Source: Escherichia coli 042 (GTDB lineage: Bacteria; Pseudomonadota; Gammaproteobacteria; Enterobacterales; Enterobacteriaceae). Taken from it: 64,000 nucleotides of DNA. Below, one piece after another: positions 34,098 through 43,169 of the stretch (positions within the stretch are counted from its first letter, which is position 1; each line of letters begins with the position of its first letter). The position numbers were made by a program, and so were the translations under genes. The stretch lies in the NCBI RefSeq assembly GCF_000027125.1, contig NC_017626.1, one strand, 5' to 3'. The notes below the pieces were generated by a model, which was not told where the DNA came from, did not search any database, and saw nothing but the letters and a program-made list of their open reading frames with translations.

Positions 34098-34553
34098 GGG
34101 AGTTCTACCGCAGGGGCGGGGAACTCCAAGTGATGTCCATCATCGCATCCAGTGCGTCCGGTTTATCCCCGCTGACGCGGGGAACACACATGAATGTCGG
34201 TTCAGACCGTGTTTTTACCCGGTTTATCCCCGCTGGCGCGGGGAACACTCGTCGGCGTCTTCACCCGTCGCATAACGCTGCGGTTTATCCCCGCTGGCGC
34301 GGGGAACACTGCCAGCGTGTCGGCGTGCGTTTCGCGCTGCCCGGTTTATCCCCGCTGACGCGGGGAACACTCGATCGATAGCTGCGCGATACCTGCGGGG
34401 ATCGGTTTATCCCCGCTGACGCGGGGAACACGGCAGCTATCGAGGCAGTTATCGAGCGTCGCGCGGTTTATCCCCGCTGACGCGGGGAACACCAAAGGAC
34501 ACCGGGAGGCACCCGGCACCGCAGCGGTTTATCCCCGCTGACGCGGGGAACAC
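34098..34553 (-). CRISPR. type I-E CRISPR array: 8 repeats (the iap-proximal one degenerate), 7 spacers of 32 nt
   Basis: 29-nt repeat cggtttatccccgctg(a/g)cgcggggaacac at 34159, 34220, 34281, 34342, 34403, 34464, 34525; degenerate copy at 34098..34126; 61-nt period. Confidence 0.95.
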
Positions 34554-34649
34554 ACTAAGCATACATAACTGTTTTTAAAAAAATTTATTCCGCATCAACA
34601 ATCTACCAACTAAATTAAAACATTTCCTTATTTTTAAAGAACAGATAAC
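34554..34649 (-). promoter_or_regulatory. CRISPR leader (AT-rich, contains conserved motif acaatctaccaact)
   Basis: AT-rich non-coding segment between last repeat and cas2; motif at 34599..34612 recurs at the same distance in the second leader. Confidence 0.8.
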
Positions 34650-34943
34650 TTATTGATTATCAACAGGAAGAAAAGAAACCAAACGCACCCCATCCAAATC
34701 CACCGGAATACGTCTATTTTCACCCCAGGTCTGAAATTCAAAACCCGACTCGGTATTGGTCGCCCAGGCCATTACCACATTTCCGCAACCTGCCAGTTGA
34801 GAGATTTGCTGCCAGATCATCTCCCGAATACGTTTGGACGTATCTCCGACATAAACACCGGCACGCACTTCCAGGAGCCAGATCGCGAGCCGTCCACGTA
34901 AGCGCGGAGGGACATTTTCTGTAACAACGACGACCATACTCAT
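34650..34943 (-). CDS. cas2: CRISPR-associated endoribonuclease Cas2 (I-E)
   Basis: 97 aa; [26 protein letters not shown] typical of Cas2e. Confidence 0.95.
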
Positions 34944-40420: not shown

Positions 40421-40511
40421 CCTCTCGTAAAAAAGACCATCCCAGGTCGGTTGTCCATCATTCCATCCTTTTGGGTGTATCAACTATTCAGAGAGCCCTG
40501 TCGCAGGCATC

Positions 40512-43169
40512 TCAACCAACCTTGCCAGTCAATCCTTCCATAGCCGAATACCCGCAACTTTCGTCATCGGTGACTAAAATCACGTTTGCCATCTCCGGAT
40601 CTTGCCGCTGTTCAATGCACCACTGCCTGAACGCATCCCCTTCCAGTAAAGAAAACTCATCCCGATGTTTTTTCCACCAGCTTCGACGCACTCTGACAAC
40701 GCTCATTTCCCATGCGTGAGCACCGGTGGCATAAGGCTTCACCACACCGTCAATACAGGTAGCCAGCCACAGGGAAACAGATTCCTCAGCCAGACGTGTC
40801 GACAGCTTTTCCGGAAGGTAATCGTTGATATTGGCGGCATAGCCAGGCTTGAAGTTCAGGACAAACTTTTTAGCCATTGCGCGATCGCAGTAATATTTGC
40901 CCACTTGCTCCTGCTCACTGCGGGCAAATCCTTCCGGCATTGCCACGTCTTCACCGTAGACTGATTCAATAAGAAGCCGGGCTGCGTGTGGCATCTGAAT
41001 AGCGCCTTGCTCACGCAGCACACGCTGCGTCAGCCAGATTCGCCCATGATCGGGGTAGACATATGCACTGTTACGCATGGCGCTGCCAAACCATTCGTCA
41101 CCCGGAGAGTCATCCCAGACGGGAGCCAGAATCAGCAATTCAGGAGGGGAACGCTCATCTTTTCCGTCACGCTTTAACTGACCATTAATATCGCGGATAT
41201 GCCGCTGTAATCGCCCCGCCCGCTGGATTAGCAAATCAATGTGGGCCAGGTCGGAGATCATTTCGTCCAGGTCACAATCGACGCTCTGCTCTAATACCTG
41301 AGTACAAATAAGGACTTTTCCGGCACGCTGTGAGTTACCTTCTTTACCAAAGCGTGCCAGCGTTTCCGTTTCAATTCGCTGGCGATCGCTAAAAGCAAAG
41401 CGGCTATGAAAAAGTGAAAGGCTGGAAGCGGGAATGACGCCGCGGGCAAGCAGCTGACGATGAACCTTAATAGCGTCATCGACAGAATTCCGGATCCAGG
41501 CGATGCATTTCCCCTGACTTACCGCCGATTCGATATGTGCAATACATTCTTGTTCGCTATGAAGCCAACCCACACACACGTTGCGCTCAACTTCTTTGCG
41601 CGTCGCTACCCGGTGCGAATGCAAATCGGATTTCGTGACATGCGTCAGCCATGGGTAATCATCCTTTTCAAGGAACGGAGCTTCTTGTTGGCCCTCTGCA
41701 CCACGCGCAAAGGCAGCGACGAGTTTGTCGCGCTGCTGTTGAGATAACGTAGCAGAAAGCAAAATGATACTGTTTCCGCCACGCGCCTGCCGCTCAATCA
41801 ATCCTTCAAGAATGCACGACATGTAAGCGTCACAGGCATGGATCTCATCAGCCAGCAGGATTTTTTTACTCAACCCCAGAAGCCGCAGATTATTATGTTT
41901 GAACGGCATCACCGCCATCATCGCCTGATCCAAGGTGCCGACGCCAATTTCAGCCAGCAACGCCTTCTTGTTACTGTCGGCAAACCAGGCCGCACATCCC
42001 TGGCTGAACGCTTGTTCATCCGGTTCTTCTGACCCGACTAAATCACCGGACCAGAGTGATTCATTGAAGCGGTCCATTAATGTATGGGCACTGTGTGCCA
42101 GCACCAGGCTGGGGCGGGATTCTGGCGAATAGAAAGCAAGCCAGGTTTTGACCAGCCGATCGTACATGGCATTGGCCGTTGCCATTGTTGGCAGGCCAAA
42201 AAACAAACCCTGAGCTTTCCCCGCAGCCATCAACCTGTGGACCATGATAAGCGCTGCTTCTGTTTTACCTGCGCCAGTCACATCCTCCAGAATAAATAAC
42301 TGTGGCCCAGGCTGGCTGATATCCAGATCCAGTACCTTTTGCTGTAACGGTGTCGGGTGCTCAATAAAAGGAAACAGTGTATTAATTCCGGTGAAAGGCG
42401 CGGTTTGTGCTTTTGGAGGAAAGACGGTTAAGGCGTTTTGAGCCTGAACTAAAGCCTTCTGCCAGTAATCTTTAATATCCATTGCCTGTGCAACGCGTGG
42501 AAAAAACCGCGTTGACGATCCCGTCCAGTCTGCGAGTACGACGGTTGCAGAGATATACCAGGAAAGTTGTTTTATAAGTTCAACGCCCTCGTCATCATCC
42601 CAGAATGTGGGGATCTCGATGAGCGGGAACAGTGTCTTGATTGCAAGGAGAAAATCTCGTGCGGCAGCTTTGTCTTCAGGCAGAAAATTATCCAGTTCAT
42701 CCATACGATCAGGAGGCTGACCATGATGCCCGGTAGTCATGGGCATCCACATCTCTATTACCCGTTTAAGTTTGCGGGGAGAGAGTGAAGATGAAGGAAG
42801 CAACTCTTCACATTCAATTAAATAATGATTCCACAACCAGTAGCCCAGCGTTGAATGAGAGATCTTTTCGTAATTTTTTCTTGCACTTTCCGGAACCTTG
42901 AGCTGTGGGTGCAGGTAAAGTTGCTGAAAAGAGCGGGCAAATTTTCCAGTATCGTGCCAACACAGCAACCAGGCGAAAAATTGTGCTGCCTGCTCCGTGT
43001 CAGCGATACCTAATTGACGAAAATAGTCAGCCAACCCGAAACAGTTGTTTTTGACCATTAAATAACCCGTCGCGGCTACATCCAGCGAATGCCAGCAAAG
43101 TAGATGATAGTCGTCGCCGCCCTCTTTCTCGCCACGTCGGGTTTTTCCCCAGAAATCAAAGAAAGTCAC
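40512..43169 (-). CDS. cas3: CRISPR-associated nuclease-helicase Cas3 (HD domain + SF2 helicase)
   Basis: 885 aa; N-terminal HD motifs (LCWHSLDV, HDTGK), Walker A GAGKT, DEAH-like LADEIH. Confidence 0.95.
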   Translation of the reverse strand: MTFFDFWGKTRRGEKEGGDDYHLLCWHSLDVAATGYLMVKNNCFGLADYFRQLGIADTEQAAQFFAWLLCWHDTGKFARSFQQLYLHPQLKVPESARKNYEKISHSTLGYWLWNHYLIECEELLPSSSLSPRKLKRVIEMWMPMTTGHHGQPPDRMDELDNFLPEDKAAARDFLLAIKTLFPLIEIPTFWDDDEGVELIKQLSWYISATVVLADWTGSSTRFFPRVAQAMDIKDYWQKALVQAQNALTVFPPKAQTAPFTGINTLFPFIEHPTPLQQKVLDLDISQPGPQLFILEDVTGAGKTEAALIMVHRLMAAGKAQGLFFGLPTMATANAMYDRLVKTWLAFYSPESRPSLVLAHSAHTLMDRFNESLWSGDLVGSEEPDEQAFSQGCAAWFADSNKKALLAEIGVGTLDQAMMAVMPFKHNNLRLLGLSKKILLADEIHACDAYMSCILEGLIERQARGGNSIILLSATLSQQQRDKLVAAFARGAEGQQEAPFLEKDDYPWLTHVTKSDLHSHRVATRKEVERNVCVGWLHSEQECIAHIESAVSQGKCIAWIRNSVDDAIKVHRQLLARGVIPASSLSLFHSRFAFSDRQRIETETLARFGKEGNSQRAGKVLICTQVLEQSVDCDLDEMISDLAHIDLLIQRAGRLQRHIRDINGQLKRDGKDERSPPELLILAPVWDDSPGDEWFGSAMRNSAYVYPDHGRIWLTQRVLREQGAIQMPHAARLLIESVYGEDVAMPEGFARSEQEQVGKYYCDRAMAKKFVLNFKPGYAANINDYLPEKLSTRLAEESVSLWLATCIDGVVKPYATGAHAWEMSVVRVRRSWWKKHRDEFSLLEGDAFRQWCIEQRQDPEMANVILVTDDESCGYSAMEGLTGKVG

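Follow-up and report, generated by a model that had tools for sequence, protein, structure and literature searches.

The CRISPR-Cas locus (type I-E) of Escherichia coli 042, which lies in a 64,000-nt stretch of DNA (the window), raises two questions: whether its short cas3-cse1 junction and the lengths of its Cas proteins, which differ from those of K-12, set this strain apart, and whether cas3 is transcribed together with the Cascade genes that follow it. Both points came from a reading made without database searches (the sequence-only reading). We answer the first with high confidence, identifying the locus as the E. coli type I-E system in its common non-K-12 version; the second is treated below with more reserve.

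Gene content of the locus

From iap to hok/cysH, the order on the minus strand is array, leader, cas2, cas1, cas6e, cas5, cas7, cse2, cse1 and cas3 (Table 1). Profile search placed all eight Cas proteins above the curated cut-offs of the NCBIfam type I-E models. The signature pair cse1 (cas8e) and cse2 (cas11) was found together with cas7e, cas5e and cas6e, all far over cut-off, with a single fused Cas3 (HD nuclease and SF2 helicase) and with the adaptation genes, Cas1e and Cas2e, beside the leader and array. Catalytic residues were conserved in a residue check, including E141, H208, D218 and D221 of Cas1e. The sequence-only reading had described a complete, contiguous locus of eight minus-strand genes with a leader and eight repeats, and this description holds, with the eighth repeat degenerate. 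Its impression that the locus looks functional is supported by the intact ORFs and the family models; stops, which it had proposed to seek by resequencing, were looked for in the ORFs, and no internal stop was found in any of the eight cas genes.

By family membership, Cse1, Cse2, Cas7, Cas5 and Cas6e would make up Cascade, and Cas6e would produce crRNAs by cutting the array transcript. Cascade would find PAM-flanked protospacers, after which the HD-helicase Cas3 would be recruited and the target degraded, and new spacers would be inserted at the leader by Cas1-Cas2. Beyond the AT-rich region upstream of cas3 lies a hok/sok locus with a 50-aa hok (43407-43559) and an Rfam sok match at 43544-43701; K-12, by comparison, is without a hok coding sequence beside sokX.

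Table 1. Features of the type I-E locus and its flank, in window coordinates
Feature	Position	Strand	Details
CRISPR1 array	34098-34553	minus	8 repeats (7 good, 1 degenerate); 7 spacers of 32 nt
Leader	34554-34649	minus	96 nt; GC 0.24; homologous to K-12 leader
cas2e (cas2)	34650-34943	minus	97 aa; TIGR01873 131.6 bits (cut-off 33); 85% identity to K-12
cas1e (cas1)	34940-35863	minus	307 aa; TIGR03638 380.9 bits; 85% identity to K-12
cas6e	35860-36510	minus	216 aa; TIGR01907 283.7 bits; 30% identity to K-12
cas5e (cas5)	36492-37238	minus	248 aa; TIGR01868 160.6 bits; 40% identity to K-12 over 149 columns
cas7e (cas7)	37249-38304	minus	351 aa; TIGR01869 444.6 bits; 34% identity to K-12
cse2 (casB, cas11)	38319-38855	minus	178 aa; TIGR02548 101.8 bits; almost no similarity to K-12 CasB
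cse1 (casA, cas8e)	38852-40414	minus	520 aa; TIGR02547 613.4 bits; 25% identity to K-12
cas3-cse1 junction	40415-40511	minus	97 nt; GC 0.49
cas3	40512-43169	minus	885 aa from GTG 43169; TIGR01596 and TIGR01587 above cut-off
AT-rich region upstream of cas3	43170-43406	minus	putative regulatory role
hok/sok type I toxin-antitoxin locus	43407-43701	minus	flanks the cas cassette

Comparison with K-12

The K-12 type I-E locus (ygcB/cas3, casABCDE, ygbT/cas1 and ygbF/cas2) shares with this one its site, gene order and repeat family as well as the homologous leader, and its Cas1 and Cas2 are 85% identical to those found here, with the same catalytic residues. The Cascade proteins and Cas3 differ far more, at 25-40% identity (Table 1; Cas3, 32%), and Cse2 is essentially unalignable. 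The sequence-only reading had noted unusual lengths for Cas6e, Cas5, Cse1 and Cse2, and the differences are real (216 vs 199, 248 vs 224, 520 vs 502 and 178 vs 160 aa; also 351 vs 363 for Cas7). That they might be a matter of annotated length in proteins otherwise identical to K-12 was contradicted by the alignments. The K-12 allele models also fell short of their cut-offs, at 423 bits against 569 for NF007248 (Cas3) and 108 against 576 for NF007247 (CasA).

At the nucleotide level, homology to K-12 is lost at 35852 and regained at 43557, and the segment between (35852-43556, cas6e to cas3 and the region upstream) has no similarity. Replacement of the whole cas locus by recombination at conserved flanking sequences was proposed by Touchon & Rocha 2010 (PMC2886076), and a divergent block between homologous flanks, as seen in these alignments, fits that proposal.

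Membership of the common non-K-12 variant

Two E. coli I-E variants have been published (PMC12736100; PMC2886076), and a compact junction with divergent alleles defines the commoner one, which appears in print as "var. B-8552" (PMC12736100), as O157:H7-like and as Salmonella "cas-STM"-like. Gene lengths here equal those given for var. B-8552 in Table 1 of PMC12736100 (casA 1563, casB 537, cas7 1056, cas5 747, cas6 651, cas1 924 and cas2 294 bp), and the iap-cysH site, the gene order and the 97-nt cas3-casA gap are those of the O157:H7-like variant; gene lengths, protein identity and gap thus all place the locus in it. Among the seven proteins compared with strain CB6837, Cas2, Cas1, Cas5, Cas7 and Cse2 are identical, Cas6e is 99.5% identical and Cse1 is identical over the RefSeq span. 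Against O157:H7 and JCH8249, identity is 96.5-97.7% for Cse1 and 93.9-94.5% for Cas3, the lower values (96.5% and 93.9%) being those for O157:H7. Array content, at seven spacers, is strain-specific within the variant. The cas-STM type is reported to be common to Escherichia, Shigella and Klebsiella (PMC7712790), and the S. Typhimurium locus of that type is likened to the present one by published description.

Of 5426 complete E. coli genomes, 2430 have a colinear cas3-cse1 junction, O157:H7 among them, and 2411 of the 5426 have at least 80% of the locus. The suggestion of a divergent allele is therefore right as regards K-12 and wrong if taken as peculiar to this strain, and the compact junction is conserved in the common published variant. 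The locus was already known, with nothing new in its junction or alleles: it is a textbook system in its commonest natural allele set, not a discovery, and the value of the present analysis is mainly one of quality control.

Start sites of cse1 and cas6e

Cross-strain comparison and RefSeq annotation place the cse1 start at ATG 40414, with GAGAGG before it as the Shine-Dalgarno sequence, and because cse1 starts there the junction is 97 nt. The gap of under 100 bp given in the sequence-only reading is thus confirmed, along with the end of cas3, with neither of its two candidate cse1 starts retained: ATG 40420 reads ATA in O157:H7, and in E. albertii and Escherichia sp. MOD1 the frame of a 543-aa product from TTG 40483 is lost through an 8-nt indel. 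A 262-aa cas6e ORF reaching 36648 was rejected as an over-extension, since other Escherichia and RefSeq give 216 aa; the start adopted agrees with RefSeq in A10, O157 and CB6837.

Intactness and start of cas3

RefSeq (PGAP) labels cas3 as frameshifted in the nearest strains, A10 and CB6837, and in others at about 99% identity, and degraded cas loci are frequent in Escherichia and Shigella (PMC2886076). If cas3 were a frameshifted pseudogene, the locus would be interference-dead and decaying. The label goes back to a single extra T (TTTT vs TTT, at about 43190) that the window shares with A10 and CB6837: because this lineage, compared with the O157:H7-like variant, has a single additional T at 21 nt upstream of the cas3 GTG, the 899-aa O157:H7 model from ATG 43211 reads frameshifted. 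The frameshift falls, however, in a 42-nt 5' extension that is without a Shine-Dalgarno sequence; GTG 43169 has one, AAGGA, 10 nt upstream of it. The equivalent codon is GTG or TTG in all Enterobacterales relatives examined but Chimaeribacter, and in E. albertii, Phytobacter, Intestinirhabdus and Atlantibacter an in-frame stop lies ahead of this codon with no other possible start in between. The start of K-12 Cas3 is only three residues further out, and alignment to the full-length K-12-type model begins at residue 2.

The protein read from this GTG has the expected domains over cut-off, with the HD model (TIGR01596) covering residues 24-219 and the helicase core (TIGR01587) residues 292-662; the HD nuclease residues H72 and D73 and the helicase motifs GAGKT (K302) and DEIH (441-444) are all intact. 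Taken together, these sequence features make a pseudogene very improbable. Most likely cas3 is intact and starts at the conserved GTG 43169, and the "frameshifted cas3" call in this lineage is probably a product of an over-long reference start. Given that origin of the call, surveys of "intact" I-E systems may under-count.

The cas3-cse1 junction and transcription

The K-12 cas3-casA gap holds Pcas, and cas regulation in that strain involves Pcas, anti-Pcas and the action of LeuO within the gap, with separately controlled cas3 limiting. As the sequence-only reading had stated, this K-12 region is several hundred bp long: it measures 414 nt at a GC of 0.29 and forms a third AT-rich island, in contrast to the 97 nt at 0.49 found here. 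When 100-nt windows with GC <= 0.33 were merged, the locus gave two islands only, one being the leader and the other lying upstream of cas3, and the 97-nt junction had none. The cas3-upstream island (merged windows 43130-43389) overlaps the first cas3 codons and has a minimum GC of 0.18; the wider region given in Table 1 takes in the 42 nt that are coding in the RefSeq 899-aa Cas3 model, together with the extra T. We infer that the cas promoter lies in this AT-rich region and that H-NS silencing acts there. Consensus scans for promoters and terminators upstream of cas3 and in the leader gave nothing above chance and are uninformative for weak or H-NS/LeuO-type promoters.

We tentatively read cas3 together with Cascade, cas1-cas2 and the array as one H-NS-silenced unit with a single promoter island upstream of cas3, in which a boxA-like element of the leader would give protection from Rho. 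Transcription would most likely start in the one AT-rich island that lies upstream of cas3 and is probably bound by H-NS, and would continue as one unit from cas3 through the translationally coupled Cascade and cas1-cas2 genes and the boxA-like element into the array; a weak internal promoter may be present inside the cas unit. Stop-start overlaps occur at cse1/cse2, cas5/cas6e, cas6e/cas1 (where the GTG start of cas1e overlaps the cas6e stop) and cas1/cas2. The boxA-like element (34631-34643, TGTTCTTTAAAAA) lies 77 nt upstream of the first repeat, close to the ~78 nt reported for boxA in S. Typhimurium (PMC7665894), in which the I-E locus is reported to be silenced by H-NS, boxA is functional and the cas genes are co-transcribed with the array (Stringer et al. 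2020, PMC7665894).

Alternatively, the Cascade operon may have its own promoter in the junction or in the 3' end of cas3, with cas3 and cse1-cas2 as separate units and the compact gap as a smaller regulatory region. We regard this arrangement as possible, if rather doubtful. Independent cas3 and Cascade units exist in K-12 and S. Typhi, which carry other variants (PMC8039139), and the junction is conserved in length and sequence across the 2430 genomes, its sequence conservation in the cross-strain comparison being about equal to that of flanking coding DNA. Just upstream of the ribosome-binding site of cse1, the junction also has a 4-bp hairpin with T6 after it, which could be a regulatory site or a weak terminator and could attenuate read-through. 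The predicted RNA fold of the junction, on the other hand, does not exceed shuffled sequence in stability (z-score -1.2), a consensus scan found no terminator-like site in it, and its GC is well above that of the K-12 gap. Over 40300-41000 a scan for the sigma-70 consensus gave no match, where 0.4 are expected by chance and the crude scan is uninformative for weak or H-NS/LeuO-type promoters.

Related loci speak against a dedicated regulatory gap as well: cas3 and cse1 are separated by 11 nt in the close relatives Citrobacter and Phytobacter, and in archaea and a Lambdaproteobacterium the distance runs from -4 to 24 nt, the genes overlapping in distant relatives. Other relatives, which count against the single-unit reading, have gaps of 151-862 nt. 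Judging from these sequences, compact or overlapping junctions are normal for the Cse1 family of this locus, and co-transcription of cas3 with Cascade, as the sequence-only reading had suggested, is plausible.

Nearly all work on E. coli I-E regulation concerns the K-12 variant, and our literature search for transcription data on the non-K-12 variant turned up K-12 and Salmonella work only. About 45% of complete E. coli genomes have this non-K-12 variant, in which the 414-nt AT-rich cas3-casA region of K-12 is missing. If cas3 and Cascade do form a single unit, Cas3 supply would be tied to Cascade expression, unlike in K-12, and the K-12 regulatory logic (Pcas, anti-Pcas, LeuO) would be inapplicable to most natural E. 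coli.

Array and spacers

Seven 29-nt repeats of the palindromic E. coli type (GTGTTCCCCGCG[T/C]CAGCGGGGATAAACCG) lie at 34159-34553 with 61-nt spacing, and the degenerate terminal repeat is at 34098-34126. Allowing up to 6 mismatches, spacers 1-6 had no second match in the window, and a search of the phage collection at E <= 1 gave none for spacers 2-5 and 7. For spacer 1 there is a match to phage P1 over 32/32 nt, with an AAG PAM before the protospacer, and spacer 6 matches P7/SJ46 over 32/32 nt. The P7 protospacer is preceded by CTG, which to our knowledge is not a K-12 interference PAM, so that a canonical PAM accompanies only one of the two matched protospacers. The perfect P1 and P7 matches point, if only indirectly, to past adaptation.

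Locus content and spacer matches

The window DNA is E. coli chromosome, and its cysH-cysI-cysJ-queD-ygcN segment has 100% identity to strain A10 and ~97% to most other complete E. coli genomes. The type I-E locus is bordered by iap on one side and by a hok/sok module adjoining cysH on the other. All 8 cas ORFs lie on the minus strand, none interrupted by a stop codon, next to the CRISPR1 array, whose 8 repeats and seven 32-nt spacers are preceded by a leader of 96 nt. Protein families were tested with the NCBIfam type I-E models at curated cut-offs, which each Cas protein passed (Cse1, 613 bits; Cse2, 102; Cas7e, 445; Cas5e, 161; Cas6e, 284; Cas1e, 381; Cas2e, 132; Cas3 helicase core, 208; Cas3 HD domain, 85). 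The residues required in K-12 are all kept in Cas3 (H72/D73; Walker-A K302; DEIH 441-444) and Cas1 (E141, H208, D218, D221), as is the Cas6e histidine aligned with K-12 H20. The sequence-only reading of a complete I-E locus was thus borne out by the uninterrupted ORFs, leader, 8-repeat array and family models.

Features of the locus and of the further CRISPR remnants (window coordinates)
Feature	Coordinates	Details
CRISPR1 degenerate terminal repeat	34098-34126	
CRISPR1 repeats	34159-34553	seven, 29 nt, 61-nt spacing
Spacer 6	34188-34219	32/32 to P7 and SJ46, CTG before match
Spacer 1, adjoining leader	34493-34524	32/32 to P1-type phage-plasmids (P1, RCS47, many P1-like plasmids), AAG PAM before match
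boxA-like TGTTCTTTAAAAA	34631-34643	77 nt upstream of first CRISPR1 repeat
hok toxin ORF	43407-43559	intact, 50 aa, between cas3 and cysH
Rfam sok match	43544-43701	109.6 bits, between cas3 and cysH
Degenerate block	59667-59805	three repeat-like copies, between ygcE and queE
Small CRISPR2 array	60258-60410	3 repeats and 2 spacers, between ygcE and queE; K-12-type repeats GAGTTCCCCGCGCCAGCGGGGATAAACCG, own leader
boxA-like, near-consensus TGCTCTTTAACAT	60497-60509	ahead of small CRISPR2 array

Hundreds of non-mobilizable plasmids likewise match these spacers (~70-150 kb among the matches listed); the other five CRISPR1 spacers had no match in the phage collection. These sequence matches are consistent with genuine past adaptation against P1-like elements, and do not show present activity.

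Divergence from K-12 and distribution of the variant

Identity to K-12 is 85% for Cas1 and Cas2 and 25-40% for Cascade and Cas3 (Cas5, 40%; Cas7, 34%; Cas3, 32%; Cas6e, 30%; Cse1, 25%), with Cse2 barely alignable, in agreement with the earlier suggestion of divergent alleles. Nucleotide similarity to K-12 spans iap, repeats, leader, cas2 and cas1 (~71% identity from array to cas1), ends at 35852 and returns at 43557 with 96.5% identity, within the hok/sok module; cas6e to cas3 and the upstream region are therefore a different cassette. Since 43557 is the hok start codon, the hok CDS is part of the segment that differs between cas variants; K-12 keeps sokX alone at this site, whereas the window has an intact hok too.

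The variant has already been described and is the majority state of natural E. coli, with a junction-spanning 271-bp stretch found as a single colinear match (≥90% identity) in 2430 of 5426 complete genomes; 2411 of the 5426 contain ≥80% of the locus (9.4 kb). A 2025 survey comparing 'var. K-12' with 'var. B-8552' lists, in its Table 1, gene lengths equal to those in the window, and it assigns the non-K-12 variant to 35% of the strains and the K-12 variant to 11% (PMC12736100). The cas gene sets at the E. coli locus were reported to be highly divergent by Touchon & Rocha (2010), who proposed replacement of the whole cas locus via recombination at conserved flanks (PMC2886076), and the 'cas-STM' type of a Salmonella study is common to >600 Escherichia, Shigella and Klebsiella strains (PMC7712790). 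This E. coli cas locus, including a Cse1 with 97% identity to that of the window, is also present on a 7-kb contig labelled 'MAG: Collinsella sp.', which almost certainly entered that bin as contamination from E. coli.

The cas3-cse1 junction

The cse1 start was placed at ATG 40414 (520 aa), and the RefSeq start is identical in four strains. Both starts proposed by the sequence-only reading were rejected: ATG 40420 is ATA in O157:H7, and in E. albertii and Escherichia sp. MOD1-EC7003 an 8-nt indel disrupts the frame from TTG 40483. With ATG 40414 as the start, the true cas3-cse1 gap is 97 nt (40415-40511), below 100 bp as that reading had it, and the several hundred bp that it gave for K-12 agree with the 414 nt measured. 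The 97-nt gap is identical in O157:H7, JCH8249, A10 and CB6837; the compact junction is fixed in the non-K-12 variant and is not special to this strain.

One Cse1 search of genome contigs gave 38 loci, and gaps were compared in those with cas3 upstream. They measured -4 to 24 nt in Methanosarcinales and related archaea and a Lambdaproteobacterium (one outlier, 122), 11 nt in Citrobacter youngae and Phytobacter, 89 nt in E. albertii and Escherichia sp., 97 nt in E. coli (this variant), 151-176 nt in Klebsiella indica and Intestinirhabdus, 500 nt in K. spallanzanii and Atlantibacter, and 862 nt in Chimaeribacter. This range argues that tight cas3-cse1 linkage is the usual state in this Cse1 family; long AT-rich gaps, K-12's among them, are derived exceptions. 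In K. spallanzanii a solitary CRISPR repeat-like CTTATCCCCGCTGACGCGGGGAACACC lies right after the cas3 stop, which hints that this gap may have been enlarged via insertion or recombination with repeat DNA.

Probable intactness of cas3

RefSeq/PGAP labels cas3 'frameshifted' in A10 and CB6837, the nearest strains, which would suit a truly inactivated gene; other ~99% identical strains have the same Cas3' product name in RefSeq. Behind the label is a single additional T (TTTT vs TTT, ~43190; region 43150-43215) relative to an 899-aa model from ATG 43211 in O157:H7 and JCH8249, and this T lies inside a 42-nt 5' extension ahead of GTG 43169. It is very unlikely that the extension encodes protein, because start-codon comparison, model alignments, Shine-Dalgarno placement and natural T alleles all speak against it. 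At the position of GTG 43169, E. albertii, Phytobacter, Intestinirhabdus and Atlantibacter have GTG/TTG, with an in-frame stop ahead of it and no possible start in between; a start codon is also present there in Citrobacter youngae and Klebsiella indica, and K-12 Cas3 starts only 3 residues ahead. The K-12-type full-length Cas3 model can be aligned from residue 2, and the match to the HD-domain model begins at residue 24. The Shine-Dalgarno motif AAGGA lies ahead of GTG 43169, with nothing comparable at ATG 43211, and the TTT and TTTT alleles are both natural, another Escherichia species included. These comparisons indicate GTG 43169 as the probable cas3 start, so true inactivation is quite improbable; the 885-aa cas3 is most likely intact and its pseudogene label an annotation-model artefact. 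The label is probably a systematic mis-annotation in the lineage, a by-product that may be useful.

Transcription model

Between 34000 and 44000, 100-nt GC of ≤0.33 occurs only in the leader (34540-34709) and upstream of cas3 (43130-43389, minimum 0.18); in K-12 the cas3-casA gap is a third AT-rich stretch, which the window lacks. Stop-start overlaps join cse1/cse2, cas5/cas6e, cas6e/cas1 and cas1/cas2. The most economical model is a single H-NS-silenced unit that would start upstream of cas3 and extend through the array. Co-transcription of cas3 with Cascade, as raised by the sequence-only reading, is a reasonable possibility; strict co-transcription has an even chance or somewhat less.

An additional internal promoter is possible, if rather doubtful. 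Against a single unit, conservation of the junction is close to that of the adjacent coding sequence, the junction holds a 4-bp hairpin followed by T6, K-12 and S. Typhi, whose variants differ from this one, transcribe cas3 separately (PMC8039139), and a crude scan upstream of cas3 likewise found no promoter. However, the 97-nt junction has a GC of 0.49, neither a sigma-70 consensus nor a terminator-like site was found in it, and its predicted structure was no better than that of shuffles (z = -1.2). A literature search found no transcript data for the non-K-12 variant. A possibly useful reminder from the comparison is that the regulatory layout of K-12 would not carry over to the common E. 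coli variant.

In S. Typhimurium, CRISPR-I is co-transcribed with the cas genes and a functional boxA occupies the position equivalent to that of the CRISPR1 boxA-like element (Stringer et al., PMC7665894). This element suggests that the CRISPR1 array transcript may undergo Nus-factor antitermination.
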